Source: Patescibacteria group bacterium
GTDB taxonomy: Bacteria > Patescibacteriota > Minisyncoccia > GCA-002772825
DNA: 53,835 bases
Assembly (NCBI GenBank): GCA_024654625.1
Contig: JANLHB010000039.1
Span: 1 to 53,835, forward strand
Direction: 5' to 3'
Positions 1,211-53,273 of the stretch are shown piece after piece. Below the pieces are notes generated by a model, which was not told where the DNA came from, searched no databases, and worked only from the letters and a program-made list of their open reading frames with translations. The translations under genes were made by a program, and so were the position numbers. Numbering within the stretch: position 1 is the first letter of the stretch; the number at the start of each line of letters is the position of its first letter.

Positions 1211-1339
1211 TTTTATAAATTAAAAGGTAATTCAGAAAGATTTAAAAACTCATTTTCTTTAAGAACGAATTCTGCCTCAAAAAGAGGCAGATAGGGAAAT
1301 TCTACAGAAAATAACTTTTGAATTTTTCTATAATAAAAT

Positions 1340-2290
1340 ATGACAGAAGAAAAAAAATACGATGTAGTGATTATAGGCGGGGCGACTGCCGGTATGACGG
1401 CGGCAATATATGCCGCTCGTAAAAAACTTAAAACTATAATTTTAACCAAAGAGATAGGCGGGCAAAATTTAAAAACTGACAGAATAGAGAATTTTCCCGG
1501 TTTTATGACCATTGCCGGCAAAGATCTTACAATGAAGATAAAAGAACAGGTAGATAGATACGGCGTGCTCATAGAAGAGGGCGCGATAGTGGAAAAGATT
1601 GATGTTCATCCGGACGGCAAAGATAAATTTGTTGTGCATTTGAAAGGAGGAGATGTATATGAAGCAAGGACTATCATCATCGCAACGGGAAAGAGTCCGC
1701 GTCTATTAGGAATCCCGGGCGAGAAAGAGTTTGAGAATAAGGGGGTAAGTTTCTGCCCGACTTGCGATGCGCCACTTTTTGGCGGTAAAGATGTGGCAGT
1801 AATAGGGAGCGGTAATTCCGGTCTTGAGTCGGCAAATGATCTCTTGAAATATGCGAATAAGATTTATGTGCTTGAATATGGCGCTGATATAAAGGGAGAT
1901 CCTGCGACAGTGGAAGCTCTTAAAAAGACGGGTAAGGTGGAGTTTATTCTTCGGGCTGAAACGAAAGAGATACAAGGTGTTAATTTTGTAGAGAAGCTTT
2001 TGTATAGAGACCTTTCTGACAATGACACTAATGAGCTTAGTGTCCAAGGAGTATTTGTAAATATCGGTTGGGTGCCGGCGACAAATTTTTTAGATAATTT
2101 CGTTAAGCTGAATGAATATGGCGAGGTGGAGATAGACCACAAGACAACACAGACATCTGTGCCTGGTGTATATGCGGCAGGCGATGTCTCGAGCACTTTG
2201 TATAAGCAATGTATCATAGCGGCCGGCGAGGGGGCAAAAGCGGCCCTTTCTGCTTATAACTACATATTAGAGAAGGATAAAGGAAAATAA
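1340..2290 (+). CDS. trxB: Thioredoxin-disulfide reductase
   Basis: FAD/NAD(P) Rossmann motifs (VVIIGGATAGMTAA, VAVIGSGNSG) and redox-active CPTCD motif. Confidence 0.9.
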   Translation: MTEEKKYDVVIIGGATAGMTAAIYAARKKLKTIILTKEIGGQNLKTDRIENFPGFMTIAGKDLTMKIKEQVDRYGVLIEEGAIVEKIDVHPDGKDKFVVHLKGGDVYEARTIIIATGKSPRLLGIPGEKEFENKGVSFCPTCDAPLFGGKDVAVIGSGNSGLESANDLLKYANKIYVLEYGADIKGDPATVEALKKTGKVEFILRAETKEIQGVNFVEKLLYRDLSDNDTNELSVQGVFVNIGWVPATNFLDNFVKLNEYGEVEIDHKTTQTSVPGVYAAGDVSSTLYKQCIIAAGEGAKAALSAYNYILEKDKGK

Positions 2291-8180: not shown

Positions 8181-8275
8181 TAAGATAAATATACACTTTA
8201 ATTACGCTTGACGCAAGGTGTAGTTGAGTGCTCTGGTGTTTTGCTTAAGTGAGAAAAAAATAATATAATCAGTAG

Positions 8276-8863
8276 ATGCATTATATAGTAGGGCTCGGTA
8301 ATCCGGGTGATGAGTATAAAAGTAGCCGACATAATACCGGCAGGATTCTTGCGGAATCTTTTTGTAAGAAAGAAAAGTTTTCAGAGTTTAAAGTCGATAA
8401 GAAGTTAAAGGCTGTGGTGTCGGGTGGAAAGATGGGAAAAGAAAAAGTGGAGGTGATACTCCCTGAGACTTTTATGAATAAGTCAGGACTCTCTTTGAAG
8501 CTGGTTATCACGAGCAAAAAGAAGGCGCAAGATTTGATTGTTATCTATGACGATTTGGACTTGGCGCTTGGCACCTTCAAGATCTCTTTTAACCGTGGCT
8601 CGGGCGGGCACAGGGGGGTTGAGTCAATCGTCCGCACTCTAAAGACTAAAGAGTTTGTGAGGATACGGGTAGGCATATCACCGGCGACCCCGAAGGGGAA
8701 GGTGAAGAAACCGCAAGGGGAGAAGAAGGTGGTGGATTTCATCATCGGTGATTTCAAGCCGAAGGAGCTTGAGGTTATAAAAAAAGTCTCTAAGAATATC
8801 CACGAAGCGCTTGAGATGATAGTCACCGAAGGCTACCCAAAGGCAATGAGCGTGTATAACTAA
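8276..8863 (+). CDS. pth: Peptidyl-tRNA hydrolase
   Basis: N-terminal VGLGNPGDEY..RHNTG motif, conserved Pth fold length. Confidence 0.9.
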   Translation: MHYIVGLGNPGDEYKSSRHNTGRILAESFCKKEKFSEFKVDKKLKAVVSGGKMGKEKVEVILPETFMNKSGLSLKLVITSKKKAQDLIVIYDDLDLALGTFKISFNRGSGGHRGVESIVRTLKTKEFVRIRVGISPATPKGKVKKPQGEKKVVDFIIGDFKPKELEVIKKVSKNIHEALEMIVTEGYPKAMSVYN

Positions 8864-8981: not shown

Positions 8982-9419
8982 CTATTTAAACGTCGTCTCG
9001 GTACAATGCATAATAAGAGTACAATTTCCACTATCATGCCACAAGAGAACGTGAACTCCCTCGACGTTGCCCATAGCTATGTAGCGAAGGTTGCCATCTT
9101 CTTCGAATATCAGGCTTCGGAATTTCTCTTGTAGTATTTGAATAAGTTCATCTCTTCTTTCGCTTGGGCAGGATATTATAGTCTCCCTTTTCCCAATAAG
9201 TAAGTTTAGTTTATTTTCCTTATTCCTTAAAAGAAAAAGAATCTCATTCTTTGTCCAAAGGCCACAAGAGATGGATAAAAGATCCCTGGTAGTTAGAAAT
9301 CTACTTAAATCTTTTTCAGTCGGACCAAATGTGTTGCTGGTGGGAAGTGACCGACTGCCGAATGGTCCTTGTGCTCTTTGTCTTAGCATTTCTTCTGACC
9401 TGTTTTTTATCCTCTTCAT
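8982..9419 (-). CDS. Hypothetical protein, no recognisable domain, slightly GC-richer than surroundings
   Basis: 145-aa ORF between terminator palindromes, adjacent to the RAYT. Confidence 0.4.
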   Translation of the reverse strand: MKRIKNRSEEMLRQRAQGPFGSRSLPTSNTFGPTEKDLSRFLTTRDLLSISCGLWTKNEILFLLRNKENKLNLLIGKRETIISCPSERRDELIQILQEKFRSLIFEEDGNLRYIAMGNVEGVHVLLWHDSGNCTLIMHCTETTFK

Positions 9420-9552
9420 GACATACCCTCCTTTTTTATATTTTCTTATTTCTTTCGATTTTTATTGATAATATGCTATCTGTACCCATAAAAGCATTTG
9501 TGTCTTAAAAAGTCAAAATAAACAGACTTTTATCACCTAAATTGTTTTGTTT

Positions 9553-10356: not shown

Positions 10357-11481
10357 TTACTGTTGTTCTGTTTCGGTGATCGCTTTGCCTTCTTCAGCGT
10401 AGTTTAAGGTCAATTTTTGTTCTTTAGGGTCAAAGAGAGTTATCTGGAAGGCGTATGATTTACCAAGTTCCAGCTTCTTCTTCATCTCTTCCTCTGTACC
10501 GAACTCTGATATGTGGACGAGGCCGGCTACACCCTCTTCAATACTTGCCAGCGCTCCGTGCCTGTTGAATTTGATGATAACACCCTTGATGATGTCACCC
10601 TTCTTGTATTTGTCTTTCGCTTTCTCCCATGGGTTGGGCTTGAGAGCTTTCACCGAGAGTGAGATCTTGCCGTCTTTTATCTCTATGATCTTTGCTTTTA
10701 TCTTCTCTCCCACTTTGAAGAGGTCTCCCGGGTTCTCAATAAGTGTCCAGTCAAGTTCTGAGATGTGAGCTAATCCTTCAAGTCCTTCTTCAATTTTTAT
10801 AAAAATTCCAAAATCAACTACCCCGGTTATGTTTCCTTCTATAATATCGCCTACTTTATATTTTTCCACTATTTCTTTTAGCTCCTCTGACTCTATTTTC
10901 TTCTCTGACAAAATAATTCTCCCTTCTTTCTGATCGCTTCCTATTATAGTGACAGCTATTTTAGTGCCGACAAGTTTTTTAAGTTCTTGAAGAATCTTGT
11001 CTTTATCGCCATCTTCAATTCTCGGATAATGATCAGGTTTTAATTGTGAGGCCGGTAAGAACCCTGGAATTCCATTCCAGTCCATGATAAGACCGCCTTT
11101 ATTGGCGTCTGTAACAGTAAGATTTAAAGCGATGTTGCTTTTCTGAGTTTCTTCAACTTCAGCCCATATTTTTTCTTGTTTAGCTTCTTTTAATGAAAGC
11201 TCTATATAACCGTCTTCATTTTCAATTTCTACCACTTTTGCGCTTATAGAATCGCCGGGTTTTAGGATCTTTATGATATCTCTGGCATTATTGAATTCTC
11301 TGCCATATATTATACCTGTGCCAAAAGGAGTAATATCTACAAAAATGGAAGATTGTTCCTTTCCTATAACCTTTCCTTCGATTAATTCGTTGATTCTGGG
11401 ACGAAGGGCAGGCTCCTTCCTTAGTAGAAGGTCCATTACTCCCATTGATACCTCTTTTGTTGGTTCTGCTAATGTATTCAT
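10357..11481 (-). CDS. rpsA: 30S ribosomal protein S1, 4 S1 domains
   Basis: Repeated S1 OB-fold motifs (GDIIEGNITGVVDFGIFI...GLAHISE; GEKIKAKIIEIK..ISLS). Confidence 0.8.
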   Translation of the reverse strand: MNTLAEPTKEVSMGVMDLLLRKEPALRPRINELIEGKVIGKEQSSIFVDITPFGTGIIYGREFNNARDIIKILKPGDSISAKVVEIENEDGYIELSLKEAKQEKIWAEVEETQKSNIALNLTVTDANKGGLIMDWNGIPGFLPASQLKPDHYPRIEDGDKDKILQELKKLVGTKIAVTIIGSDQKEGRIILSEKKIESEELKEIVEKYKVGDIIEGNITGVVDFGIFIKIEEGLEGLAHISELDWTLIENPGDLFKVGEKIKAKIIEIKDGKISLSVKALKPNPWEKAKDKYKKGDIIKGVIIKFNRHGALASIEEGVAGLVHISEFGTEEEMKKKLELGKSYAFQITLFDPKEQKLTLNYAEEGKAITETEQQ

Positions 11482-11614
11482 ACTTGGTATCTCATTATAG
11501 ATAAAAATAGATATTTAGCAATACCTTGGAGGCTGTTTATGTAAAATTAAGCCGATAATTTTAAATTTTTTTAAATTAGCTTTTTTGATAAATTTGATTT
11601 AAAATCTGATTATA

Positions 11615-12820: not shown

Positions 12821-12906
12821 GGCGTTTAAATTTATGTCAACGTGGCAGGTTGACATAAAATATTTAATTTTACATGTTCTTGACAGATGTGGTATAATTT
12901 TTCTAA

Positions 12907-14562
12907 ATGAACAATAAAGATATTACTTATTTTGCCGAAGCTAATTTTCGTAATAAACACCAGCGTTTCGGTATAAAGCGCGATGATAGAACAAAGCATG
13001 TTTACGTTATAGGAAAGACCGGTATGGGTAAATCTACCATGCTTGAGAATATGGCGGTGCAGGATATTCAAAACGGCGAGGGAATGGCTTTTATAGATCC
13101 TCACGGAGCGACTGCCGAGCTCCTCTTGGATTATGTGCCGGAGGATCGCATAGATGATGTAATCTATTTTGCTCCGTTTGATACAGAGTATCCTATTTCT
13201 TTTAATGTGCTAGAAGATGTCGGTTACGACAAACGTCACTTGGTGGTGGCGGGTCTTATGAGCACATTTGAGAAGATCTGGGTTGACGCATGGTCTGCCA
13301 GAATGTCATACATCTTAAGCAACACGCTTCTCGCTCTCTTAGAATACCCAAACTCAACTTTGATGAGCATCAACAGAATGCTTGCTGATAAGGAGTATAG
13401 AAAGAAGGTTGTAGATAATATCACAGACCCCACGGTCAAATCATTTTGGGTCGATGAGTTTGCCAAATATACAGACAGATATACCCAGGAAGCGACACCG
13501 GCCATCCAAAACAAGATAGGTCAATTTACTTCAAATCCTTTGATAAGAAATATTATCGGACAGCCTAGGACCAGTTTTGATTTACGCAAATTGATGGACG
13601 AGAAAAAGATTATTATTATCAATCTTTCAAAAGGGCGGTTAGGTGAGCAGAATGCGAATCTCTTAGGTAGTATGCTTATCACTAAAATCTATCTTGCCGC
13701 TATGTCTCGCGCCGACGTATCAAGCGAAGAACTTAAAAAGCTTCCTCAATTTTATTTTTATGTTGATGAGTTTCAATCTTTCGCCAATAAATCTTTCGCT
13801 GATATATTATCCGAAGCGAGGAAGTATAAATTGAATTTAACTATTGCGCATCAATATATAGAGCAAATGTCAGAAGAGGTTAACGCTGCGGTGTTCGGAA
13901 ACGTGGGAACGATGATAGTATTTCGTGTCGGAGCTTATGATGCCGATATTTTAGAGAAAGAGTTTGCGCCTGAGTTTATAGCTCAAGATATCGTAAATCT
14001 CGGATTTACTCAGATCTATCTAAGGTTGATGATAAATGGAGTGGGGTCAAGACCTTTTTCCGCTTCCACCTTACCGCCGATTGCGAAGCTGGAGCATTCT
14101 TTTAAAGATAAGATAATTGAAGCTTCTAGGAAGAATTATGCTATTCCGAGAAAGACAGTGGAGGATATGATAAAGAGATGGCACGAAGATGGCGCTCCGA
14201 CTGTCTTGAGTAAACCTGGTTCTATAATGGCTAAGAAAGATGACAAACCTTTTGAGAAAAAGCCAGTATTCGCTTTAAGCGCAGATAAGCGCATCGAGCA
14301 AAGGCTGGATAACAAAAAGCCATATGAAAGAAAGTACGTTAAGCCAACCATCTCTCTAAATGCTTTGAAAGAAAAATCCGGAGAGAATGTTCTCATTAAC
14401 AATAAGAATAGAAGTCATGATCAAAGGAGCCATCCTCAAAAGGCGAGTGCCAATTTAAGCGCCTTAAGAGAAGCCTTAAATGAAATTGCGGCAACCGGCG
14501 AGCCTAAAGAAAAAAATAAAAGCGGAATATTAAAACCTGGACAAAAAATAAAATTTGATTAG
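12907..14562 (+). CDS. FtsK/HerA-superfamily P-loop ATPase, TraD/VirD4 coupling-protein-like, with Lys-rich disordered C-terminal tail
   Basis: Walker A VIGKTGMGKST, Walker B FYFYVDEFQSF, sensor Gln (TIAHQ); no N-terminal TM helices. Confidence 0.5.
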   Translation: MNNKDITYFAEANFRNKHQRFGIKRDDRTKHVYVIGKTGMGKSTMLENMAVQDIQNGEGMAFIDPHGATAELLLDYVPEDRIDDVIYFAPFDTEYPISFNVLEDVGYDKRHLVVAGLMSTFEKIWVDAWSARMSYILSNTLLALLEYPNSTLMSINRMLADKEYRKKVVDNITDPTVKSFWVDEFAKYTDRYTQEATPAIQNKIGQFTSNPLIRNIIGQPRTSFDLRKLMDEKKIIIINLSKGRLGEQNANLLGSMLITKIYLAAMSRADVSSEELKKLPQFYFYVDEFQSFANKSFADILSEARKYKLNLTIAHQYIEQMSEEVNAAVFGNVGTMIVFRVGAYDADILEKEFAPEFIAQDIVNLGFTQIYLRLMINGVGSRPFSASTLPPIAKLEHSFKDKIIEASRKNYAIPRKTVEDMIKRWHEDGAPTVLSKPGSIMAKKDDKPFEKKPVFALSADKRIEQRLDNKKPYERKYVKPTISLNALKEKSGENVLINNKNRSHDQRSHPQKASANLSALREALNEIAATGEPKEKNKSGILKPGQKIKFD

Positions 14563-19180: not shown

Positions 19181-19346
19181 TCACATTGCATGTGATTTGA
19201 AAATTCGAAATTTGAATATTGAAATTCGAAACAATTATTAAAATATAAATTCTAATGTTTTAAACATTAGAATTTATAAAATTAGAATTTGTTTTGTATT
19301 TCGGATTTGTGATTTCGTGCTTTCGCAATCATGCGTAGCGTGATGC
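19181..19346 (+). other. IVS copy 2 in 23S rRNA, around E. coli position 1710-1750, near-identical to copy 1
   Basis: Direct repeat of the 17768-17933 element with ~4 substitutions. Confidence 0.7.
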
Positions 19347-19573
19347 GTTGGGCGCAGCGAAAGTATCCCTGGCGACTGTTTATCAAAAACACAGCTCCCT
19401 GCGAACTCGTAAGAGGATGTATAGGGGGTGACGCCTGACCAATGCGAGAAGGTCAAATACGACTGGTGCTTCGCACCAGAATTTTCAAGTAGCAATCTTC
19501 AATTTTCAAAATTTGGAAATTGTAAATTGAAAATTGGAAATTCTAGCGCGGAGTGCTGAGTTGTATAAGCCCT

Positions 19574-19613
<40 letters not shown>

Positions 19614-20196: not shown

Positions 20197-20245
<49 letters not shown>

Positions 20246-20272
20246 AAGTTACGCGAGCTGGGTTCAAACCGT

Positions 20273-20764
20273 CCAGATGCTAAAATCTATTTTTTGGCTT
20301 TTGAGCGGTTTGAATCAAGTTCACGACATTGAGAAGTAGTGTTATAAATTTTTTCGTTTATGAAAAAAGATAGAATCAATCAAATCACGGCGGCCTCTTT
20401 TTAGTAATAATTTGAGGACCAGTCAACTTATATCGGTGAAACCTCTTTCATAAAGAGGCAATACCGAGGGAAGTATTATTGTAGGTTTTGTAAGGGGAGA
20501 CGATGTAGCTTAAAAATCAGAATTTTGCTACGTGATTCGAACACGAGCACTTTCTGATACGGTAAAGCACCGATTGAAAACCGGAAGAATGTGGCAGCCA
20601 CCACCTTCGTCACCCCAGAAAAAATAAGGTCAATCAAAATTGATTGACCCCCTTACAAAACCTATAATAAGTACACCCGTAGAGACTAAATGTTGACTAT
20701 CCAAATTTGATAAAAATTTGGATAAAGTTATAGTCCAATGCATTTGGCGACAAATGATATCATG
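20273..20764 (+). mobile_element. ORF-less group I-type intron in the 23S rRNA peptidyl-transferase region (E. coli position ~2593)
   Basis: 492-nt insertion between ...AACCGU and CGUGAGACAG; the 5' exon ends in U and the insert ends in G, as for group I splice sites. Confidence 0.55.
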
Positions 20765-20818
20765 CGTGAGACAGGTTGGTCTCCTATCTACTGCAGGCGT
20801 TTTGATTCTTGAAGAGAT

Positions 20819-20849
<31 letters not shown>

Positions 20850-21090
20850 TAACCTCTGGTGTACCAGCTGTCCTGCCAAGGGCACTGCTGGGTAGCTATG
20901 TTGGGAAAGGATAACCTCTGAAAGCATCTAAGAGGGAAGCCAACTCTAAGATTAAGAATCTTTAAGACTCCTGAGAGATGATCAGGTTGATAGGCTCTAA
21001 GTGTAAGCGCAGTAATGCGTTTAGCTGAGGAGTACTAATAGTTGTTTTCCTACTAGGAAATTTGTAAATTTATATATATTAAAAAAGAAC

Positions 21091-21212
21091 GCAGAATGTT
21101 GGTGGTTTAACAGGGAGGGTACACCCGATCCCATTCCGAACTCGGAAGTTAAGCTCCCTAGTGGCGATGATACTCCTTATGGGGGAAAGTAGCTGACCGC
21201 CAACATTCTGCG
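21091..21212 (+). rRNA. rrf: 5S rRNA with extended terminal stem
   Basis: Conserved 5S core (cccgatcccattccgaactcggaagttaagc), flanking cgcagaatg/cattctgcg stem, T-run after. Confidence 0.85.
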
Positions 21213-28776: not shown

Positions 28777-28843
28777 ATAAAACATTCTTTCCTTAGTAAA
28801 TAAGACAGCAACTTAACATAAACTTTAGAAAAGGAGGTTTGCG

Positions 28844-29050
28844 GTGTGGTGGATAAAATGGCCCAAAAGAGAAGAAGCATCATTATACAAGAAACATGTA
28901 CTTTATAATGACAAAATATGGAGCATAGAAGAAGAGGGAAGAGGTTGGCTTGTTATCTCAGATGGGGTGAGGAAATTATTTTGCGACAAGAAAGATACGG
29001 ATTATTTTGATTACAAAAAGGAGGATATTGAGTCTTTGGCGGGCTGGTAG
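28844..29050 (+). CDS. Small hypothetical protein (GTG start with AAGGAGG 5 nt upstream)
   Basis: 68-aa ORF between glyA and folD followed by a strong terminator; no domain recognised. Confidence 0.35.
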   Translation: MWWIKWPKREEASLYKKHVLYNDKIWSIEEEGRGWLVISDGVRKLFCDKKDTDYFDYKKEDIESLAGW

Positions 29051-29060
29051 TCTTACGCTC

Positions 29061-29100
29061 TTTAATGTAAAGACCCGCGATTTTACGCGGGTCTTTTTTA
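29061..29100 (+). terminator. Rho-independent terminator
   Basis: aagacccgcgattttacgcgggtcttttttatttt. Confidence 0.8.
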
Positions 29101-30701: not shown

Positions 30702-30750
30702 AAATTTATAGGTCTTGTCTAAAATTTCTATCTGGGTATAATAAAGACCA

Positions 30751-32097
30751 ATGTTTAAGATAAGGATTTTGGCAATATTTTTCATCTTAGCCGGCATCAG
30801 TATCGGTTATTTTACTTACTCGTCAGAGCTTGGAAGTGGAGACGTTCCGCCACGGCTTCCTTTTAAACTTGGCCTTGACTTGCAAGGAGGTTCTCATCTT
30901 TTGTATAAAGCTGATGTTTCAAGTATCGACCCTAGCGATATAGATAACTCTATGGCTGCTCTTCGTGATGTTATAGAACGAAGGGTTAACCTCTTTGGAG
31001 TGTCTGAACCTCTTGTTCAAGTGGAAGAGACGGGTGTTTTTAGCGCCGGTAAGGAGAAGGAGTATCGTCTCGTGGTGGAATTACCCGGTGTTACTGACTT
31101 GGAACAGGCTGTAGCTATGATAGGGCAGACTCCGTTTCTTGAGTTTAAGACTGAACGTGATACCAAAGAGCAGGAGGAGATATTTGAAGCGCAGAAAATT
31201 GGAGAAAGATTATATGAAGATCCGTATTTTGTCACTTCTGATTTGACTGGACGATATATTAAGAAAGCGGTTTTGGAATTTGATAGTACCACCTTCGAAC
31301 CTAAAGTTGGCTTGGAGTTCAATAAGGAAGGAGAAACTCTTTTTGCTAAGTTAACAAAAGAAAATGTTGGTAAAAGAATAGCAATTTATCTTGACGGCGC
31401 TCCTATTTCTGTACCCGTTGTTCGCGAGGAGATTACATCAGGTACGGCGGAGATTTCCGGCGGATTTACAGCAGAGGAGGCGAAACTTCTTGTAGGGAGG
31501 TTAAATTCAGGGGCGCTACCTGTGCCTATTGAGATTATCTCAGAACAGGGGATCGGCGCGACCCTGGGCGGGGATACTTTAATGAAAGGTATTAGGGCCG
31601 GTGTGTATGGGATTGTCGCCGTAGCGATATTTTTGATCTTATACTATCGATTAGCCGGACTGCTAGCTGTCGCTTCGCTCTCAATCTACACAGTGTTAAT
31701 GCTTTTCCTATTTAAGGTATTTGGATTCACTTTGACTTCTGCCGGTATTGCCGGGTTTATTCTCTCTGTCGGTATGGCGGTTGATGCTAACGTAATTATT
31801 TTTGAACGTATTAAGGAAGAGCTTCAGGGCGGAAAGATGGTTCAAGGTTCAATATCAGACGGCTTTTCAAGAGCGTGGCTTTCAATTCGTGACGCTAATA
31901 TTTCAAGCATTATTACGGCCATTATTCTTTTTTGGTTTGGCACAAGTTTAGTTAAAGGATTTGCTTTGGTCTTTGGGCTTGGAGTTTTAATTTCAATGTT
32001 TTCCGCTATTACAGTTTCAAAGGTATTATTCCTATCTCTTGGTATTAAAGAGGGAACGAGATTCAGTCGATTTTTATTGGGAGGAAGTTTTAACTAG
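30751..32097 (+). CDS. secD: Protein translocase subunit SecD
   Basis: LGLDLQGGSHLLY motif, periplasmic domain plus 6 C-terminal TM. Confidence 0.9.
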   Translation: MFKIRILAIFFILAGISIGYFTYSSELGSGDVPPRLPFKLGLDLQGGSHLLYKADVSSIDPSDIDNSMAALRDVIERRVNLFGVSEPLVQVEETGVFSAGKEKEYRLVVELPGVTDLEQAVAMIGQTPFLEFKTERDTKEQEEIFEAQKIGERLYEDPYFVTSDLTGRYIKKAVLEFDSTTFEPKVGLEFNKEGETLFAKLTKENVGKRIAIYLDGAPISVPVVREEITSGTAEISGGFTAEEAKLLVGRLNSGALPVPIEIISEQGIGATLGGDTLMKGIRAGVYGIVAVAIFLILYYRLAGLLAVASLSIYTVLMLFLFKVFGFTLTSAGIAGFILSVGMAVDANVIIFERIKEELQGGKMVQGSISDGFSRAWLSIRDANISSIITAIILFWFGTSLVKGFALVFGLGVLISMFSAITVSKVLFLSLGIKEGTRFSRFLLGGSFN

Positions 32098-33061: not shown

Positions 33062-33158
33062 CGAGATTGGACAATTTGTTATGTTTGTTGTATATTTGAG
33101 TCAGATTGAAAATATACAAGTATTTTAATTTGATAAAATAGAATAGTGGAGGTGCAAG

Positions 33159-33476
33159 GTGTGCCATGATATTTTTGAAGTAAGGTGTGATTGCGGTTGG
33201 AGAGGAAGTTCCAATGAGCTTAAAGTAGAATATGAAATATGTTGTCCCACTGTTTTGTTGAGCATAAAATGCCCCTCTTCTGCCTGCGGACATGAGTTTA
33301 TCCAGATAAACGAATGCTCTGGCCGTGTGTATATTGAGCTTGAGCAGGGCGCCTTCTTGTCAGTGCCTGTTTCGGGTAACGAGGACGAATGCAGAGCGAT
33401 TCCGCGTCTCAGTGAAAAAGAGAAGGCGAAGCTTAAAATATTGAGGTATTTTACCATGAAAGAGAATGTAAAATAG
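33159..33476 (+). CDS. Small Cys-rich hypothetical protein (GTG start, GGAGG 7 nt upstream)
   Basis: 105 aa with 11 Cys (CDCGW, CCPT, CPSSACGH, ECSG), followed by a hairpin terminator. Confidence 0.35.
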   Translation: MCHDIFEVRCDCGWRGSSNELKVEYEICCPTVLLSIKCPSSACGHEFIQINECSGRVYIELEQGAFLSVPVSGNEDECRAIPRLSEKEKAKLKILRYFTMKENVK

Positions 33477-33505: not shown

Positions 33506-33545
33506 AAGAGGTCAGGCGCCAGCGCTTGACCTCTTTCTTTTTATG
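33506..33545 (+). terminator. Hairpin terminator (aagaggtcaggcgccagcgcttgacctctt + T-run)
   Basis: Perfect stem followed by tttcttttt. Confidence 0.7.
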
Positions 33546-35032
33546 TATATAATGTATTAGAGCCTATAAGAAGTATAGGTCGTCCTTTAATAATTTAAAA
33601 ATCCACTAAATAACAAGTCCAAAAAAACAATGATAGTCCGCCTAGGGCGGATTAATTCGGGCAATCAGCTTTCAGCTGAGCCCTCATTGAATATTATTCT
33701 TTCTTTTGTTCCGTTCTATTCAACCGAACATTCTTCGGAATGTTTTAGGTTTTTTTAAGAGTTTGATCCTAGTCCCGATTTTACTCGCATCTTTGATGCG
33801 ATTGTAAAATCGAGGATTCTCGAAAAATATATCCCGATTTCATCGGGAGTTATTTTTCGGAACTCAGGATATGTGATTTATTCATATATTTTGTTTGAGA
33901 ATCAATACTTCTTTTTTAAGAGTTTGATCCTAGCTCAGGATGAACGCTGGCGGCGTGGATAAGGCATGCAAGTCAAACGGGCACCTTCGGGTGCCAGTGG
34001 CAGACGAGGTAGTAACACGTAGGAACGTGCCTCTAAGTTGGGCATAATCCGCCGAAAGGCGGACTAATTCCCAATAGTCCCTTCGGGGTAAAGTCCGCTT
34101 CGGCGGACGCTTAGAGATCGGCCTGCGAGCTATCAGCTTGTTGGTAAGGTAATGGCTTACCAAGGCGATGACGGCTAGGGGAGGTGAGAGCCTGACCCCC
34201 ACCGATGGCACTGAGACACGGGCCATACACCTACGGGTGGCCGCAGTCGAGAATATTCCACAATGGGCGAAAGCCTGATGGAGCGACGCCGCGTGCAGGA
34301 TGAAGTCTTTCGGGATGTAAACTGCTTTTATGAGGGAGAAATTACGATGATGTTACCTCAAGAATAAGGGGCTGCTAAACTCGTGCCAGCAGCAGCGGTA
34401 ATACGAGTGCCCCGAGCGTTATCCGAAATTATTGGGCGTAAAGGGTTTGTAGGCGGCTTTGTTAGTCTCTTGTTAAAGCTTCCGGCTTAACCGGAAAAGT
34501 GCAAGAGAAACGGCAAATCTAGAGGATGCGAGAGGTCTATGGAACTCATGGTGTAGGGGTGAAATCCGTTGATATCATGGGGAACACCAAAAGCGAAGGC
34601 AATAGACTGGCGCACTCCTGACGCTGAAAAACGAAAGCGTGGGTAGCGAATGGGATTAGATACCCCAGTAGTCCACGCCCTAAACGATCTTCTCTAGCTT
34701 TTTGGAGTATCGACCCTCCGGGAGGCGAAGCTAACGCGTTAAGAGAAGCGCCTGGGAAGTACGGTCGCAAGACTAAAACTCAAAGGAATAGACGGGGACT
34801 TGCACAAGCGGTGGATCATGCGGTTTAATTCGATGATAAACGAAGAACCTTACCAGGGTTTGAAACCCAAGCGAAGTCCGCCAGAAACGGCGGACGTCTC
34901 ACAAGGACGGTTGGGCAGGTGATGCATGGCTGTCGTCAGTTCGTGGTTTGAATTGTTCCCTTAAGTGGGGTAACGAACGCAACCCCCGTTGCCTGTTATA
35001 TGTTTCAGGCGAGACTGCCCCTCACCAAACTC

Positions 35033-35122
35033 GGAAGAGTTTGGAAATCCGAAGCACGAAGCACGAAAAACGAAACAAAAAGTTTCGAATTTCGAATTTC
35101 GGATTTAACCAATCTTATTGGT
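35033..35122 (+). other. Palindromic IVS in 16S (around E. coli position 1130-1140)
   Basis: ccctcaccaaac...[cgaa/ttcg-rich insert]...ggtttggtgaggg extends a helix by ~90 nt. Confidence 0.6.
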
Positions 35123-35361
35123 TTGGTGAGGGGAGGAAGGCGGGGATGACGCCAAGTCAGCATGTCCCTTTGACACCCTGGGCTACACGCATGATACAAT
35201 GGTCGGTACAATGGGTCGCTAAGCGGTAACGCGGAGCCAATCCCATCAAAGCCGATCCCAGTCCGGATTGAGGTCTGCAACTCGACCTCATGAAGTTGGA
35301 ATCGCTAGTAATCGCAGGTCAGCTATACTGCGGTGAATACGTTCTCAAGTCTTGTACTCAC

Positions 35362-36206
35362 AATAAAAGCGCGCAGCAGCGCATAATTCTAAATGGTTAA
35401 AATCCATTCCCCTGATTCGTCGTCGGGGCGTAGCAGAAAGATAGCCTTTTACCGCGAGGTAAATGGTGGAGGATCTGAAAGCAAAAGATAGTCCAACATA
35501 AAAATGAGCGTATTGATTTACGAATGGGTGGTGAGCGTAGAGAAAATACACAAAAAACTCAGTTGGAATGTCTGGAAAAGAAATATGCGTGACCTGTGGA
35601 GATCTGACGTTGTTATCAGCCTTTAAGGCTGATATAATTAAACTTACGCAGCGTCAGAAGTCAGCTGAGTCATAGTATCCGCCTTAGGCGGAGAAGGCAC
35701 TCACTCTATGCAAAAGATTAACCCAGATTATATTGTAGGTTTGGTGGACGGCGAAGGCAGTTTTACTGTCTATGTACGCAATCCATCAAAAATTTCTCTT
35801 ACTCGAAGAGTTAAGATAGAACCAAAATTCTATTTGAAACTAATTGAGAAAGATAAAAGAATTTTGTATCAATTAAAAGATTTTTTTGGTTGTGGAAGTG
35901 TGTATTTTCAAAAAGATACACGACCTAATCATCAAAACTGTTATAGATACGAAGTTTATAATAGAAATGATATCCGATCGATCATAATTCCATTTTTTCA
36001 GAAATATAAATTGAAGTTTCCTTCAAAAAAGAAGGACTTTGATATATTCTGTAAAATGTTTTCTTTGATTGAGAAGGGTGAACACCTCAAAGAATCTGGT
36101 TTGAAGAAGTTGTATACCTTGAAACAACATATGCATTAGAGCTCGCCGTATACGGGAAATCCGTCCGTACGGTGGGAACATAAATTCGTAGTTTAACGAA
36201 GATAAT
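35362..36206 (+). mobile_element. Intron (probably group I) in the 16S decoding-centre region (between E. coli positions 1399 and 1400), carrying a homing endonuclease ORF
   Basis: 845-nt insertion between GUACUCAC and CGCCCGUCAC, with an internal LAGLIDADG ORF. Confidence 0.7.
35708..36139 (+). CDS. Single-motif LAGLIDADG homing endonuclease, intron-encoded
   Basis: GLVDGEGSF motif at the N-terminus, 143 aa, located inside the 16S rRNA gene. Confidence 0.8.
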   Translation: MQKINPDYIVGLVDGEGSFTVYVRNPSKISLTRRVKIEPKFYLKLIEKDKRILYQLKDFFGCGSVYFQKDTRPNHQNCYRYEVYNRNDIRSIIIPFFQKYKLKFPSKKKDFDIFCKMFSLIEKGEHLKESGLKKLYTLKQHMH

Positions 36207-36619
36207 CGCCCGTCACGTCAAGGGAGCCGGGAGTGCCCGAAGTTCGTCTTTATGGCGGATTAAGGTAAGTTCGGTGACAGGGACGAAGTCGTAACAAGGC
36301 ACGGCTAGCGGAAGCTGGTCGTGGATTATATTCATTAAATCTTGTTGAGTTCATAATTTATTATGTGCTTGATTGATTAGGTTGATTTTCCGCCTCTGGC
36401 GGATAGAGTGTTGGCCGATGAGCTTTAAGTCTCGGCTTAGAACGGAACAAAAGAAAGAATAATAAGTTTTAGCTATTAGTGGTTAGCCACTAGCCAATAG
36501 TGAATTTTAAAATTAAGCAGCCCTGTCGCTTGAAAGTGACGGGGCTGCTTTTGTTTGTAATAATCCCATTTTTCTGTTATAAAATAAGTTGTGCATTAGA
36601 ATTAGAAATCGTACGATAT

Positions 36620-40715: not shown

Positions 40716-40786
40716 GGTTTTTTGTTAGATGCTTTAGTTGAAAATTTCTTTGCAAATAAGGCCTGATTTTGTTATAATTCAAACTA

Positions 40787-41422
40787 ATGATAATCACTTA
40801 TTATGGTTCATCTTGTTTCAAGGTGCAGTCAGGTGAGACTGTGCTTGTTTTTGACCCTCCGTCAAAAGAATCGAAATTTAAGTCGCCCAGATTCGCATCC
40901 AATCTGGTATTTGTAAGCCATAATCATAAAGACCATAATGGGTGGGAGAATTTTACTGCCGGAGAAAAAAAAGCGGTAGTATTAAGAGGGCCTGGAGAAT
41001 ATGAGTCAGGAGGTACGCATATAAAAGGGGTGCTTACTTACCACGATTCTTCGTTTGGAAAAGACAGAGGGATGAATACTGCTTATGTTGTAAATTTGGA
41101 AAATATGAATATCTGCCACCTTGGCGATTTTGGAGAAGTTGAGTTAAGAGGAGAATCAAAAGAAGATATTGGCGAAGTTGATATTCTTTTTGTTCCCATA
41201 GGCGGTGATTCTGTTATTGATGCCGAAATGGCCTCAAAAATAGTTTCTCAGATAGAGCCGCGGATAGTTATTCCTATGCATTATGGAGATAGTAAATCAA
41301 CCGAATTTAAGAAATTTATTAATGAAATGGGCGGTAATGGCAAGCCGATTGATAAGCTTACGCTTAAGAAGAAAGATTTAGAAGGCAAAGAAATGCAGTT
41401 TATCGTTTTAAACGCCGAGTAA
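40787..41422 (+). CDS. MBL-fold metallo-hydrolase
   Basis: HxHxDH motif (SHNHKDHNG), later His/Asp ligands. Confidence 0.7.
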   Translation: MIITYYGSSCFKVQSGETVLVFDPPSKESKFKSPRFASNLVFVSHNHKDHNGWENFTAGEKKAVVLRGPGEYESGGTHIKGVLTYHDSSFGKDRGMNTAYVVNLENMNICHLGDFGEVELRGESKEDIGEVDILFVPIGGDSVIDAEMASKIVSQIEPRIVIPMHYGDSKSTEFKKFINEMGGNGKPIDKLTLKKKDLEGKEMQFIVLNAE

Positions 41423-44129: not shown

Positions 44130-46583
44130 ATGAAAACCAATCTAATAACAAATTTAGCAGTTTCAATAATATTTTTAACTGCTTTCTTCGTTGTGCCTAT
44201 TTCAGTAAATGCTCAGATCCTAGAGTCGTTACTAGAACCAATAATGCCCGGTATGACATCAGGGGAGGGGATCTATTTTGAAATCACAGACAGTGAGTAT
44301 TTAAATGTTTCTCTAGGTAGTTCTAAAGATATAAAGATAATAATGGAGTCAATGCCGGAGATGATAACGCTCGTGATAGAGCCGGTTCTTTCATCTACTT
44401 CCACCCAACTCATCTTTTTCGGTCTTGAGCCTATGACAACTTATTACAAATATCAAGATGATTATCATAATCTTACGGAATTTAAAACCAACGAGGATGG
44501 CATCTATACTTACACCCAGGACTTATCAAATCCTCATCTCATCTTCATACAACCTCGAAAAAGCACTAAATTTATTAAAGATAACGCCACAGGAGGTGAT
44601 TGCACTTCAGTTGGGATTTGGGATTCAGCCACAAAAACCTGCACCCTTATCGCTGATGTTAATGAGACAATACAGATAGACGATGCTAAAATTACCCTTG
44701 ATGGAGATGGTTATGCAGTAATCGGAAGCGGTACGGGCTTTGGTGTTTATCTTCCTATAATAACGGGTGTTACAGTAAAAAATCTTAATATTTCGAACTT
44801 TTTTATTGGAGTTTTTGTTTATATTTCTAGGAATTATTACAATAATGATCAGAATATTATTGTAGAAAATACGATTTCAGATAATTATGAGGGGATCGAC
44901 CTTAGGTTTTCTTCTAATAGCATTGTTTCGAAAAATATTATTTCTAATAATAATAAGGGAATATCATTTGGTTTTTATGCTGAGAATAATATTGCCATGG
45001 ATAACACATTCTTAAATTCAGATTTTCTATTTAGTTATTCTCCGAACAATAAAATATATCATAATAATTTTCTTAATAGCTCTGTAATTATTTATGGAGA
45101 ATCCAATAATCTTTTTGACAATGAGCTTCCTGGCGGCGGAAACTATTGGGGTAGTTTTGACGAGCCCGCAGAAGGGTGTCATGATTCAAATTTTGATAAA
45201 TTTTGCGACACACCTTATATTTTCTCCGGTGGGCAGGATAATTACCCTTGGGTAAAGCAAGATGGGTGGGAATCACCTCCTATTTTAGATGTTCCGAAAT
45301 ATTACCAAAATACCACTAATACTCCACAAGACCCGGATTGGCCGAATGAGACTTACGACCTTACATCAAATACAATATATCAAAAAGGGTGTGCTTTGGC
45401 TTCTGTAACAATGCTTCTGAATTATTATGGTGCAAATACGACCCCTGATACCCTTGAGCCAACTAACCCTCATTCATTAAATCGATGGCTGAATAGAACA
45501 GACGGCTATGTTACATCTACTGAGCAATTAGGCAACATAATTTGGGGAGCGATGGATAATTTTTCTGATAAGGAATCATTTGTTAAAGACTGGGAAACTT
45601 TTGATTGCACAATAGGGAATTTAGAAGAATGCAAAAATATTCTTAATTATGATTTGGATAATGAAAGACCGGTGATTATTTATACATTTAATATAGATGC
45701 GAATATTAATCATTTTGTCGTGGCTACTGGTAAGGCCGATGATAGTTGGTATATTAATGATCCGTTTTGGCTTAATGAAAATACTCCAACAAGACTTTCT
45801 GATAATGTTTATCGTGACAAAATCCTAGGCCTCCGTCGATACAAACCTGAACCAGCTACTGATCTATCCTTTCTTAATATAACCTTGGCCTCCCCAGCTG
45901 AATTGCTTATTATTGATTCCCAAGGCAGGAAAACCGGTTTTGATCCAATTACTCAAATCACTTACAACGATATCCCTAACACTATTTACTACCATGAGCG
46001 TTTAGATAACGATGAAACTGGCCAAATAGGCGTAGAAATAAAAAATTTGTATATCAGCATGCCAGAAAATGCTATTTATAATCTTCAGGTTGTTGGAACC
46101 GCCACTGGTCCTTATGGGTTATCTTTTAACAGCAGGGATATAGATGGCGACTCATCTGTTAGTGTTGAGAGCGGCCTAACTCAGGAGCACTTTATATCCG
46201 AGTATCTAATAAATTATAATAGTCAGCCAGATAGTCCGGTTAAAATTGAACGCACGGTTACAATTCAGGATATAATAGTTAAAGTAGAAATTGCCGGGAA
46301 ATTAAATTTAATTGATAATGACGGCATTGAGGATAGCCTCATCCAAAGTTTAAATCAAGCAGAAAAGAAATTAAGTCAGGGTAAAACAGAAACTACCACA
46401 AACATTCTTCAATCCGTAATAAATGAGCTTAATGCTCAGTCAGGTAAACATATAGATTCAGGTACCGCTAATATATTGATTGAAGATATTCAATTTATCA
46501 TTTCTCAAAATAATCTGAATTCTCAATCAGTACGATTATCTTTTATGCTCGCTGACTTACATGAAGCACTTTCCTCTTTTTAA
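44130..46583 (+). CDS. Secreted right-handed beta-helix (NosD/pectin-lyase-fold) protein with C-terminal C39-like peptidase domain
   Basis: Signal peptide; repeated ...N.I..N...GI.. beta-helix turns; GCALASVTMLLNYYG..HFVVATG resembles a papain-like C39/BtrH-type domain. Confidence 0.55.
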   Translation: MKTNLITNLAVSIIFLTAFFVVPISVNAQILESLLEPIMPGMTSGEGIYFEITDSEYLNVSLGSSKDIKIIMESMPEMITLVIEPVLSSTSTQLIFFGLEPMTTYYKYQDDYHNLTEFKTNEDGIYTYTQDLSNPHLIFIQPRKSTKFIKDNATGGDCTSVGIWDSATKTCTLIADVNETIQIDDAKITLDGDGYAVIGSGTGFGVYLPIITGVTVKNLNISNFFIGVFVYISRNYYNNDQNIIVENTISDNYEGIDLRFSSNSIVSKNIISNNNKGISFGFYAENNIAMDNTFLNSDFLFSYSPNNKIYHNNFLNSSVIIYGESNNLFDNELPGGGNYWGSFDEPAEGCHDSNFDKFCDTPYIFSGGQDNYPWVKQDGWESPPILDVPKYYQNTTNTPQDPDWPNETYDLTSNTIYQKGCALASVTMLLNYYGANTTPDTLEPTNPHSLNRWLNRTDGYVTSTEQLGNIIWGAMDNFSDKESFVKDWETFDCTIGNLEECKNILNYDLDNERPVIIYTFNIDANINHFVVATGKADDSWYINDPFWLNENTPTRLSDNVYRDKILGLRRYKPEPATDLSFLNITLASPAELLIIDSQGRKTGFDPITQITYNDIPNTIYYHERLDNDETGQIGVEIKNLYISMPENAIYNLQVVGTATGPYGLSFNSRDIDGDSSVSVESGLTQEHFISEYLINYNSQPDSPVKIERTVTIQDIIVKVEIAGKLNLIDNDGIEDSLIQSLNQAEKKLSQGKTETTTNILQSVINELNAQSGKHIDSGTANILIEDIQFIISQNNLNSQSVRLSFMLADLHEALSSF

Positions 46584-47330: not shown

Positions 47331-47512
47331 TTACTATCTTACCGTTTGGTGATTTACAAATGATTATTGGCACTGATGATAGTGAACTTTATTTAGACAC
47401 TTTCAATCAAATCCTTTCTACATTTAAATTTTTGAAATGATTAAATAACGAGAATTTAATTAAGGTCATGAATTGCCAAATGGTGGGAAAAAAGTTTATA
47501 ATATAGATTAAT

Positions 47513-48040
47513 ATGTTCTTAAACCCAGAACAAATAATAAAGAGATTAGATATTAATCCGGGAATAATTGCTGTTGATTTTGGCTGCGGTACCGGGCACT
47601 GGAGTGTTGCTCTTGCAAAGCAAGTCGGGGATATTGGTAAGGTTTATGCTTTAGATATACAGAAGGAGATGCTCGAGGCGACTAAGTCTAGAGCCGAGGC
47701 TTTAGGTCTTCTGAATGTAGAAGTGGTTCGCGGCGACCTTGATGAGGAGAACGGCTCAAATCTTTCTTCAGGGATAGCTGATTTTGTATTACTTTCCAAT
47801 ATATTATTTCAAGCTGATAAGAGGGAGGTGATGGTGAAGGAAGCTTCTAGGGTACTGAAGAGCGGTGGGGAAGTCGCTATTATTGAATGGGATCAAAGCG
47901 ATGTCCCGCTTGGACCGCCGAAGCAATTGAAGCTTAAACCGGAAGATGCGAGAAGAATGTTTTTAGAGGCCGGTTTCGTATTTAAAGATGACTTTCCTGC
48001 AGGAGAACATCATTATGGGCTACTTTTTAAAAAAATGTAA
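47513..48040 (+). CDS. Class I SAM-dependent methyltransferase
   Basis: Motif I VDFGCGTGHW, motif II-III spacing, 175 aa. Confidence 0.75.
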   Translation: MFLNPEQIIKRLDINPGIIAVDFGCGTGHWSVALAKQVGDIGKVYALDIQKEMLEATKSRAEALGLLNVEVVRGDLDEENGSNLSSGIADFVLLSNILFQADKREVMVKEASRVLKSGGEVAIIEWDQSDVPLGPPKQLKLKPEDARRMFLEAGFVFKDDFPAGEHHYGLLFKKM

Positions 48041-51247: not shown

Positions 51248-51976
51248 TTACGCCTTTTCTAGGAAGATCTCTATAGTCCCTCCTGACGACAGCCCTATTA
51301 CCTGGAAAAGGCCTTTTCTGGCTCCAAGCCAAACCTGCCTGCCTGGTCCGCCTATAAATTCAGCCCCATCTATGAAGCGGATCTTATAATCCGCGTTAGG
51401 GCGTGTCCTATAGGCAACGTTAGGAGGGAGTGTCACTTTCGTTGTGCAGTCGTGCCTGAACCGAACTATGACCTTTCCGGAAGGTTTTACTTTAGAGAAG
51501 TTATAGTTTTTGGCGCATGTGGGTATCGTTGGGGTCTGATCTGTCTTCGTATTCCAGCTCCACTCACCCACTAATGCCACTATATAGATCAACAGCAGGG
51601 TGAGTCCAGCGTTGAGGTGGAATCGAGCCTTTTTTCTCTGAATAGACTCCTCCCAGCTTTTTGCTGTCACACCGGTAAGCATATCAATGGCCATCATTGT
51701 AACAATAGCCATTGCTGTTAGTATCCAATTGTGAGTGAGGTATGGTCTTACCCATGAAACGTGGAATAGAATCCCAAAAAGCAGGATATAGCTTAATGGA
51801 ATTCCGGCACTCTCACGGAAACGCTCTATTGCCGTCTTTTTTCTCTCCTCTGCTTTTGTACTAGTTTCTTTTTTTCCGCTGACGGCTTTTAGCACCGTCG
51901 GAATTGCTCCTCTGGCATATATTTTAGTCAAAAGGATCAACAAGACGACTAGAAAGATGATTAGCTCTATATTCAT
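51248..51976 (-). CDS. Multi-TM membrane protein with C-terminal soluble domain, possibly an NfeD-like partner of the SPFH protein
   Basis: 4-5 TM helices then a ~100-aa C-terminal domain; start overlaps the SPFH stop; GGAGGG SD 4 nt upstream. Confidence 0.35.
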   Translation of the reverse strand: MNIELIIFLVVLLILLTKIYARGAIPTVLKAVSGKKETSTKAEERKKTAIERFRESAGIPLSYILLFGILFHVSWVRPYLTHNWILTAMAIVTMMAIDMLTGVTAKSWEESIQRKKARFHLNAGLTLLLIYIVALVGEWSWNTKTDQTPTIPTCAKNYNFSKVKPSGKVIVRFRHDCTTKVTLPPNVAYRTRPNADYKIRFIDGAEFIGGPGRQVWLGARKGLFQVIGLSSGGTIEIFLEKA

Positions 51977-53079
51977 TACTCCCTCCTATCCCTTTTTTCT
52001 CCTAAGCCTAAGGCAGAGCCTACGGCCATTATTTCTTTGAAGCCTTCGCTACCAACCACTATCGTTTTCTGTCCAGGGTTGGCAGTAATAGCTCTTGCTG
52101 TCTCAGCCCCGATTATAACATCAGAGGAAACATCAAGGGCTTTTTTCATATTAACTAATCCTTTTGTCCTTCCTCTGAGAATAGCTTCCTCAGCGGATCC
52201 ATCGCCTTCACCTAAGAGACGCTTCGCCTCTTTTTCTGCTCCCGCGCTTTTTACGCGAGCAATTGCTTTTAAAGTCGCCTCGGGAACATCTCCGACAGCG
52301 TCATTTAGTGTGTGGTGTAGGTTTATCATCTTTATCTGGGCCGTTTGCAACTCTACCCCCCACCCGTCTATCCGTTCTTGGATCTCTATGTGGAGCTCTT
52401 GACTGTATGTCCCAATGTTTGCCAACATTACAGCCGGCGTGATTTTAGCGGCCTCCCTAAAGACACAGCCAACAGCGCTATCTTCTATCTGCCTTATTGA
52501 TTCCTCCTTACTACCAATGGTAGTTAAGAAGAGGAGATAGTCAGTGATTTTCCAGCGGATTACTAATACAACCTCCGCGGTTATTCTCACATTAAGTGGG
52601 TCATCTACAGGAGGGATGATTAGCTGTTTTAGTCTGCTGATTTCCAATTTTTGTATTTCTTCCTCTGTCATCGGGGGTCCGAACGGAACCCGTATGGGTG
52701 GAAAAAGCCCATCGGGAACAAGACCATCCCCTCTGAATATCTTAGTAGGGTCACCCGGAATCTCGTCTTGTATCGTGAGACAAGTTTCTGTTTTGATTTG
52801 GCATATCCCAATAGGGGAGAACACTAAACCAGAAGACAGGTTGCTCACGGGTTTTCCAAAGATGAGTCTCGCCCCGAGCTCCGTTGGCCCTATTCTACGG
52901 AGACTTACTAAGGTGTAGAGTACAAGCGTTAGAAGCAGTGCCTGCCCCCAGTTTAAGGTCATTCCACTGATTGTCTTTGTGTAGGGGAGTAACAACAATC
53001 CTGTTATAAACAGCGTTATGTATATAGCCGCTGTTATTTTCCAAAACCATCCAATCTTCTTTATAAAGTTTTTCATCAC
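51976..53079 (-). CDS. SPFH/band-7 domain protein (stomatin/flotillin/HflK-like), membrane-anchored
   Basis: N-terminal 2 TM; SPFH core (VVLVIRWKITD..IEDSAVGCVFREA..QERIDGWGVEL..IKMINL); C-terminal coiled coil; canonical AAGGAGG SD 5 nt before ATG. Confidence 0.7.
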   Translation of the reverse strand: MMKNFIKKIGWFWKITAAIYITLFITGLLLLPYTKTISGMTLNWGQALLLTLVLYTLVSLRRIGPTELGARLIFGKPVSNLSSGLVFSPIGICQIKTETCLTIQDEIPGDPTKIFRGDGLVPDGLFPPIRVPFGPPMTEEEIQKLEISRLKQLIIPPVDDPLNVRITAEVVLVIRWKITDYLLFLTTIGSKEESIRQIEDSAVGCVFREAAKITPAVMLANIGTYSQELHIEIQERIDGWGVELQTAQIKMINLHHTLNDAVGDVPEATLKAIARVKSAGAEKEAKRLLGEGDGSAEEAILRGRTKGLVNMKKALDVSSDVIIGAETARAITANPGQKTIVVGSEGFKEIMAVGSALGLGEKRDRRE

Positions 53080-53273
53080 ATCCTCCTTTTATGCAGAAAG
53101 TTTTTAGGTTATTTAGATGTTAAAGAAACGTTATTTTCTGTTAAAATTATACATAAAAATGATAAAAAGTCAACGGCCAATGGTAATGTCCACACACATA
53201 TTGCACTTTTTTTAGATAATCCAAATTCCGTAAGGTGAGATCTTGAGGATATATTATTTTGGTTTATTGTCTA

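Follow-up and report, generated by a model that had tools for sequence, protein, structure and literature searches.

A Parcubacterial 16S rRNA gene without an anti-Shine-Dalgarno sequence, and promoter-adjacent start codons that point to leaderless or near-leaderless translation

How are start codons selected in an organism whose 16S rRNA ends without the anti-Shine-Dalgarno (anti-SD) sequence, and does anything in such a genome still depend on a Shine-Dalgarno (SD) motif? These questions are raised by the 16S rRNA gene of the window (the whole stretch of 53,835 nucleotides analysed here), which extends over positions 33912..36337 of the forward strand as two exons, ~33912-35368 and 36205-36337, with an intron between them. 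The body of the gene scored 1270 bits against the Rfam model SSU_rRNA_bacteria. The intron had truncated this first alignment, and the region 36190-36420 was re-scanned alone with cmscan. The 3' part, 36190-36336, was found to score 76 bits and to reach model position 1533. Helix 45 (36300..36323, +) reads CACGGCUAGC-GGAA-GCUGGUCGUG according to the sequence and the structure line of cmscan, and is intact, with a GGAA loop. Relatives carry the compensatory variants CACGCGTAGC/GCTGTGCGTG and TACGGCTACC/GGTGGTCGTG in this helix, which argues for a functional gene end.

Helix 45 is followed by GGAUUAUAUUCAUUA where GGAUCACCUCCUUA is usual. The tail at 36324..36337 (+) is GAUUAUAUUCAUUA in place of GAUCACCUCCUUA, and the alignment with the end of the bacterial model, ...GGAUcACCUCCUUu against GGAUUAUAUUCAUU, is gapless up to its end at 36336. 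The equivalent of CCUCC is UAUUC (36329-36333). The tail of 13 nt after helix 45 is A/U-rich, and only GAU.A is kept of the usual sequence. No CCTCC occurs within 300 nt downstream of the 16S end, and no GATCACCTCCTT-like sequence was found near the gene on the same strand. The tail and the trailer behind it are identical in three other species-level assemblies (L039, L052 and L074), which speaks against a misassembled terminus. The anti-SD has been lost from the single 16S gene visible on this one contig. The earlier note, made from the letters alone, had given the sequence of 36296-36340 correctly. Its claims that the 16S lacks CCUCC and that no CCTCC follows for 300 nt are borne out by the gapless alignment, the intact helix 45, the repeated tail and the re-scan.

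This terminus is not peculiar to the window. The GTDB species genomes were scanned for helix 45 with GAU and then six A/U bases behind it, and 97 stretches with A/U-only tails were obtained (~90 species), nearly all from Parcubacteria. They include Wolfe-, Jorgensen-, Lipton-, Harrison-, Niyogi-, Giovannoni-, Vogel-, Taga-, Terry- and Lloydbacteria. The window is a complete contig of a MAG. The source organism belongs within the Parcubacteria / Patescibacteria: proteins encoded here are identical to entries named 'Parcubacteria group bacterium' and 'Patescibacteria group bacterium', and the nearest tails are all from Parcubacteria MAGs. The tails differ from clade to clade: GAUUAAUUA was found at 35 loci, GAUUAUUUA/U at 18, GAUUUAUUU at 13 and GAUUAUAUU at 7, the window among them. 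At one locus (L075, 1388-1501, Wolfebacteria GW2011_GWE2_44_13), helix 45 and the tail are tandemly duplicated, 69 nt apart.

With regard to the start codons, the hexamer TATAAT was counted 4-12 nt upstream of 40 curated genes, at two control offsets and at random positions. The exact hexamer was present in 10 of the 40 genes, compared with none of 40 at either control offset and 0.9% of random positions. When one mismatch was allowed, the count rose to 19/40, against 4/40 and 3/40 in the controls and 11% at random. The genes carrying it include trxB, ftsZ, pth, rpsA, glyA, secD, a histidine kinase gene and the gene of a T4SS coupling protein. The hexamer with at most one mismatch precedes 17 of the 28 genes whose upstream spacer is 40 nt or longer and 2 of the 12 with a shorter one (Fisher P=0.016), and operon-internal genes (ftsA, hisS, ftsW, gyrA and the pilin genes) mostly lack it. 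The TATAAT-ATG pattern described in the earlier note is real. Its attribution to most coding starts was generous, as about half of the genes show it (19/40), and gyrA (41694), one of the examples given, is operon-internal and has no good hexamer.

At several genes a promoter abuts the start codon: the T4SS coupling-protein gene (12869..12909, +; TTTACA-18-TGgTATAAT, 8 nt, ATG), secD (30715..30753, +; TTGTCT-16-TATAAT, 8 nt, ATG), an MBL-fold gene (40750..40789, +; TTGCAA-17-TGtTATAAT, 8 nt, ATG), a methyltransferase gene (47473..47515, +; TTGCCA-18-TATAAT, 10 nt, ATG) and rpsA (11479..11521, -; TTGCTA-16-TATAAT, 12 nt, ATG). At pth (8264..8278, +) TATAAT stands 6 nt before the ATG, and at a trxB-like gene (1329..1342, +) 5 nt before it. 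In the window as a whole, the spacers of the exact hexamers are 5-14 nt long, many of them 8-10 nt. The gene of an IS200-like Y1 transposase (9604-10257, +) has a TGaTATGAT box of its own, 6 nt ahead of the ATG, which suggests that even mobile genes here use promoter-adjacent starts.

The nature of the hexamer was examined in relatives. Among 407 genes adjoining A/U-tailed 16S genes, the spacer between exact TATAAT and the start codon peaks at 6-8 nt in every tail group. When 150 genes with at most one mismatch were aligned on the hexamer, an extended -10 element, TGn, appeared upstream of it (T 0.47 at -3, G 0.47 at -2), together with a -35 TTG at 17-nt spacing (T 0.49, T 0.50 and G 0.29 at -23 to -21). 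An independent sigma-70 scan of the window placed its best matches 8-12 nt before the starts at 12907, 30751, 40787, 47513 and that of rpsA, and also in front of 16S and 23S. The 16S promoter, TTGACC-16-TATAAT (33526..33553, +), matches at 11/12 positions, which indicates that the sigma-70 consensus of the organism is canonical. The TGn and -35 signals and the common 6-8 nt peak in all tail groups identify the hexamer, as judged from its sequence context, as a sigma-70 -10 box that marks the heads of transcription units.

We consider it probable that this lineage combines the loss of the anti-SD with promoters that abut the start codons, and that its translation is largely leaderless or near-leaderless. 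Hexamers of the -10 type stand 5-12 nt upstream of the ATG in ~60% of the genes at the head of a transcription unit. Given a spacer of 6-8 nt, the expected start site of transcription is the A of the ATG or one to two bases upstream. The ribosome would form no SD helix, and transcripts would start at the start codon or within a few nucleotides of it. Such leaderless or near-leaderless mRNAs would be read by means of the 5'-terminal AUG and the initiator tRNA, with no SD:ASD pairing. Operon-internal genes, which are separated by gaps of -17 to ~30 nt, would presumably be started by termination-reinitiation coupling on A/U-rich, unstructured junctions. The sequence supports this leaderless reading, with some features less easily accommodated. 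The 8-14 nt spacers of the window exceed the 6-8 nt mode of the relatives and would give leaders of 1-7 nt, the hexamer is found in only about half of the genes, and the conserved SDs of two gene families stand outside its account.

The SDs represent the most substantial difficulty. A strong SD at 5-9 nt was found before 5 of the 40 ORFs, compared with 2% at random positions (P=0.0013). The exceptions are five ORFs, namely 8982 (-), 28844 (+), 33159 (+), 51248 (-) and 51976 (-), instead of the four that had been listed earlier. The first, at 8982-9419 (-), has AAGGAGG-N8-ATG and encodes a conserved hypothetical protein of 145 aa; with its SD, AAAAAGGAGGGUAUGUC-AUG, it occupies 8982..9440. The second (28844-29050, +; AAGGAGG-N6-GTG) is a 68-aa ORF within a unit at 28826..29096 that comprises AAAAGGAGGUUUGCG-GUG at 28844 and its own terminator at 29069-29096. 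The third (33159-33476, +; GGAGGTG-N4-GTG), a 105-aa ORF, is preceded by GUGGAGGUGCAAG-GUG (33140..33476, +) and had no Pfam match. The remaining two form a leadered operon (51248..53173, -) with the promoter TTGACT-16-TATAAT at 53173-53146. After a leader of ~63 nt, AAAAGGAGGAUGUG-AUG at 53076 opens the SPFH gene (51976-53076, -; AAGGAGG-N5-ATG). The second gene of the operon, the SPFH partner (51248-51976, -; AGGAGG-N5-ATG), is preceded by AUAGGAGGGAGUA-AUG.

The earlier note had called the SPFH cassette putatively foreign and had allowed that the exceptions might be foreign genes, false ORFs or residual SD use. Foreign or false ORFs are not supported for the SPFH operon and the 8982 ORF. 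Recent foreign origin of the cassette was rejected on the taxonomy of its homologues, which are mostly from Patescibacteria, on its synteny and on its SD-poor neighbours. The SPFH gene, its partner, four T4SS-type pilin genes and the gene of a solute-binding protein are found together again in L098/L099 and in L101/L102, and L099 comes from the same assembly as L052, whose 16S tail is the anti-SD-less tail of the window. At least 25 of 36 distinct metagenomic loci show an SD before the SPFH gene, compared with 7 of the 131 genes neighbouring it; a TATAAT box precedes 29 of these 131. All close SPFH relatives keep a TTGACT-N16-18-TATAAT promoter 65-95 nt upstream. At 54-58% protein identity, they also keep a yTCTTTrAyA box, and AAAGGAGG before both genes. 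The 145-aa gene at 8982 is likewise no false ORF: orthologues with 80% and 49% identity have the SDs AGGAGG and AAGGAGA, and other genes on the orthologues' contig have TATACT boxes and no SD.

The SPFH leaders (L098-L167) often contain a small GC hairpin between the yTCTTTrAyA box and AAAGGAGG. A structure sequestering the SD, or an RNA thermometer, was rejected, as the leaders fold no better than shuffles (z ~0) and no consensus structure was found. For the deposited SPFH protein (P0001, 328 aa), the start was placed 38 codons downstream of the ATG that follows the SD; 17 homologues support this upstream ATG, and the deposited start is likely a mis-call. A further set of A/U-tailed loci (L018, L079, L050, L071 and L044, tail GAUUAUUUUAAA) has an SD before 12 of 28 genes. 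All SD-led ORFs tested in this sub-cluster were without a Pfam match, and its long genes are of the TATAAT-ATG type.

The conservation of SDs in two families suggests that GGAGG is still recognised, by the ribosome or by something else. The ribosome would then not be blind to SDs, and a second type of 16S, a relocated anti-SD or a protein would serve the conserved leadered genes. We regard such a reader as possible, though on balance doubtful. In its favor are the excess of strong SDs in the window, the contrast between the SPFH gene and its neighbours, and the retention of SDs before both genes of the SPFH operon in diverged relatives, including the assembly of L052, and in a second family. 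The motif extends to AAAGGAGG, as pairing with CCUCCUUU would predict, and two of the SD-led ORFs begin with GTG. On the other hand, no candidate was found in the rRNAs or the trailer, the motif could instead bind a protein or act in regulation in another way, and CPR genomes usually have one rRNA operon.

The search for a relocated anti-SD covered all three rRNAs. CCCUCC in helix 26 (34715) was rejected, as it forms the 3' side of a covarying helix (CUCGGAG, CUUCAAG, CUCUGAG) whose strands flank a conserved UAUCGACC loop. Other CCUCC or CUCCU sites in 16S, 23S and 5S were judged by eye to be at conserved or paired positions and were set aside. The pre-16S trailer contains no CCUCC. Duplex energies for wobble pairing of GGAGG with the A/U tail did not discriminate. 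What is left as a possible explanation is a second rRNA type elsewhere in the genome, use of the motif by a protein or in some other form of regulation, or continuing gene flow. One might tentatively, and with rather low expectation, picture two regimes, in which housekeeping genes are leaderless and leadered accessory operons keep AAAGGAGG-N5-9-AUG under selection for a non-canonical SD reader. The accessory set that would keep its SDs might then consist, with the same reservation, of SPFH and its partner, the 145-aa family and the small ORFs.

A further alternative accepts the absence of SD pairing and differs from the preferred leaderless reading solely in leader length. mRNAs would carry leaders that are short, A/U-rich and either bound by S1 or simply unstructured, as in non-SD initiation of the Bacteroidetes type, instead of being initiated leaderless by 70S ribosomes. 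The exact-hexamer spacers of the window fit this alternative; as many of them are 8-10 nt long, short leaders are as likely as none at these genes. Protein S1 is encoded (10357-11481), and the upstream regions are A/U-rich. The spacer mode of 6-8 nt in the relatives, which places the expected start of transcription on the A of the ATG, stands against it, and we consider it unlikely as a general account. The earlier proposal of leaderless or very short-leader mRNAs is upheld as to the -10 boxes beside the ATG, with their TGn and -35 elements and 6-8 nt mode; the transcripts themselves may be truly leaderless or may have very short leaders.

TATAAT is the exact reverse complement of ATTATA, and AUUAUA is present at 36326-36331 of the 16S tail. 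Because of this complementarity, a co-evolved SD:ASD pair had to be tested, in which mRNA UAUAAU would pair with tail AUUAUA and TATAAT would be a ribosome-binding site and no promoter. The distance of 5-12 nt to the ATG would also suit an SD. Such a pair would be new, as among 128 anti-SD-less taxa no altered anti-SD was found to match an altered SD perfectly (Amin et al. 2018, PMC6107228). Nevertheless, exact TATAAT at 6-8 nt is kept with the other tails, GAUUAAUUA, GAUUUAUUU and GAUUAUUUA/U, and the motif does not covary with the tail across lineages. Hexamers complementary to each tail group's own tail show no positional peak (407 genes), and the flanks of the hexamer are not extended towards GAAUAUAAUCC. 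The TGn and -35 TTG signals and the enrichment at the heads of transcription units, not within operons, also oppose the pair. Six A-U pairs would contribute about -1 kcal/mol (a hand estimate from nearest-neighbour values); the duplex-fold energies of -5 to -8 kcal/mol come from longer regions including extra A/U pairs and do not discriminate. Furthermore, if transcription starts 6-8 nt downstream of the hexamer, the hexamer is absent from the mRNA. Given the lack of covariation and the promoter context, TATAAT was rejected as an alternative SD for the new tail. A co-evolved pair is very improbable, and the match between hexamer and tail in this clade is most plausibly coincidental.

The weakest explanation, that the terminus is misassembled or that an insertion parts GGAU from a downstream CACCUCCUUA, gains some plausibility from the intron and expansions elsewhere in this 16S and from a CCUCC-like stretch ~25 nt downstream in the L018 sub-cluster, and is rendered next to incredible by the recurrence of tail and trailer in three assemblies, by trailer hairpins with compensatory changes, by the absence of CCTCC within 300 nt, by a trailer that passes into a processing stem of 27 bp formed with the 5' leader, and by the absence of a canonical tail from 1.07 Mb of fetched related sequence. 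The CCUCC of L018 makes up one strand of a hairpin that covaries, and close relatives lack it. The only ATCACCTCCT of the window, considered as an anti-SD source (ATCACCTCCTA at 45271), was rejected because it lies in frame inside the CDS 44130-46583. A 3' exon beyond GGAU, which the earlier note had named among the findings that would overturn its claim, was looked for downstream, and no CACCUCCUUA-like exon was found. As far as sequence can tell, misassembly and a hidden 3' exon are excluded.

The pre-16S trailer (36338..36464, +) contains two hairpins, both covarying among relatives; compensatory changes are seen in L039, L052 and L074. On these grounds, and as no CCUCC lies within 300 nt, a downstream anti-SD exon or an extended tail was rejected. 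A CCUCU loop at ~36390 was also discarded as the anti-SD of an extended tail, as it is not conserved in L052 or L039. The segment 36438-36464 pairs perfectly over 27 bp with the 16S 5' leader (33692-33718), and this duplex is probably the pre-16S processing stem. The trailer also holds a conserved AGGUUGAU segment. In L018, L079 and L050, a covarying hairpin lies ~22 nt downstream, with CAUCCUCC, CAUCCUUU or CAUCCUUC in its 5' strand.

The intron (35369..36204, +) is an 836-nt insertion at the E. coli ~1400 site, at TACTCAC^CGCCCGTC, and is not the cause of the missing anti-SD. Its ORF (35708-36139) encodes a LAGLIDADG endonuclease and no reverse transcriptase. Rfam matched group II intron domains D1-D4 at 35623-35699 (37.3 bits, E 5e-5), with a sub-threshold domain V/VI match at 36141-36197, and a sigma-70-like promoter is found at 35610-35638, upstream of the ORF. 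An expansion of the 16S gene lies near 35020-35130. In the leader, 161 nt upstream, stands a second copy (33757-33772) of the first 16 nt of the gene (33918-33933; AAGAGTTTGATCCTAG, with a T-run before it), perhaps the trace of an insertion at its very 5' end. Rfam identified a bacterial 23S (17142-21058), a 5S (21098-21205), a separate 16S from 33912 and seven tRNAs. The rRNA genes are unlinked, with 23S-5S located 12.7 kb upstream of 16S, and the 23S has several insertions. A tRNA-Ile follows the 16S behind a terminator-like hairpin at 36515-36550 (region to 36694).

The loss of the anti-SD in this lineage is already published, and the window adds a well-documented example. No more than 48% of Parcubacteria were found to have the anti-SD motif CCUCCU, and in those without it SD helices are thought not to form (Tsurumaki 2022, RNA 28:1041, PMC9297842). 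A correlation of the lack with the uL1-lacking group has been reported. As far as the passages of Tsurumaki 2022 on this subgroup go, both the lineage and the anti-SD-less 16S are as here. Those same passages contain no replacement mechanism, clade-specific tails, analysis of promoters and starts, or conserved SD genes. Our literature search on leaderless or SD use in Parcubacteria, Patescibacteria and CPR returned only this study as relevant. Lim et al. are said to have reported in 2012 that bacteria lacking the anti-SD are generally without SD motifs. The same generalization was made for organisms without an anti-SD by Amin et al. (2018, PMC6107228), whose groups are Bacteroidetes genera, Mycoplasma and Carsonella, with Parcubacteria unmentioned. 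Era binds GAUCACCUCC, and era is lost in most CPR (review, PMC10582724), a loss that would remove a second constraint on GAUCACCUCC. In the region of Era and YbeY, GAUCA, only GAU.A is kept across most A/U tails. The gene of YbeY, the endonuclease of 16S 3'-end maturation, is present in the window (5502-5882, -) despite the degenerated tail.

What is added here is evidence at the level of sequence for what may have replaced the SD, namely sigma-70 promoters abutting the starts across ~90 species, and a negative test of TATAAT as a co-evolved SD for the new tail. In addition, some families keep canonical SDs, apparently under selection, in genomes where the 16S is unable to pair with such motifs. 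These conserved SD-led genes most deserve further study, and if confirmed they would bear on whether SDs can be recognised without a canonical 16S tail. In practice, start predictors trained on SDs will mis-call starts in such genomes, as in the deposited SPFH protein, which is 38 residues shorter.

Each of the known systems resembles the window in part. In bacteria rich in leaderless genes, a TA-like signal ~10 nt upstream has reportedly been described by Zheng et al. in 2011 and as 'group C' of GeneMarkS-2. Actinobacteria and Deinococcus-Thermus are like the window in having a -10-like TANNNT 6-12 nt before the ATG of the first genes of operons. In contrast to the window, where the anti-SD is gone, they keep it and use SDs for leadered and internal genes. 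In Bacteroidetes, as in the window, the SD is rare genome-wide and a few genes still have one. According to what Jha et al. reportedly found in 2021, Bacteroidetes keep a CCUCC tail in a sequestered form, whereas the 16S of the window is without CCUCC altogether; the cmscan alignment shows none in the tail for a Bacteroidetes-type sequestration. The mRNAs of mammalian mitochondria are leaderless or nearly so. The mitochondrial SSU rRNA has no anti-SD, as here (PMC10582724). Mammalian mitochondria, however, rely on dedicated factors and on processed polycistronic transcripts, whereas in the window a sigma-70 promoter abuts the gene starts.
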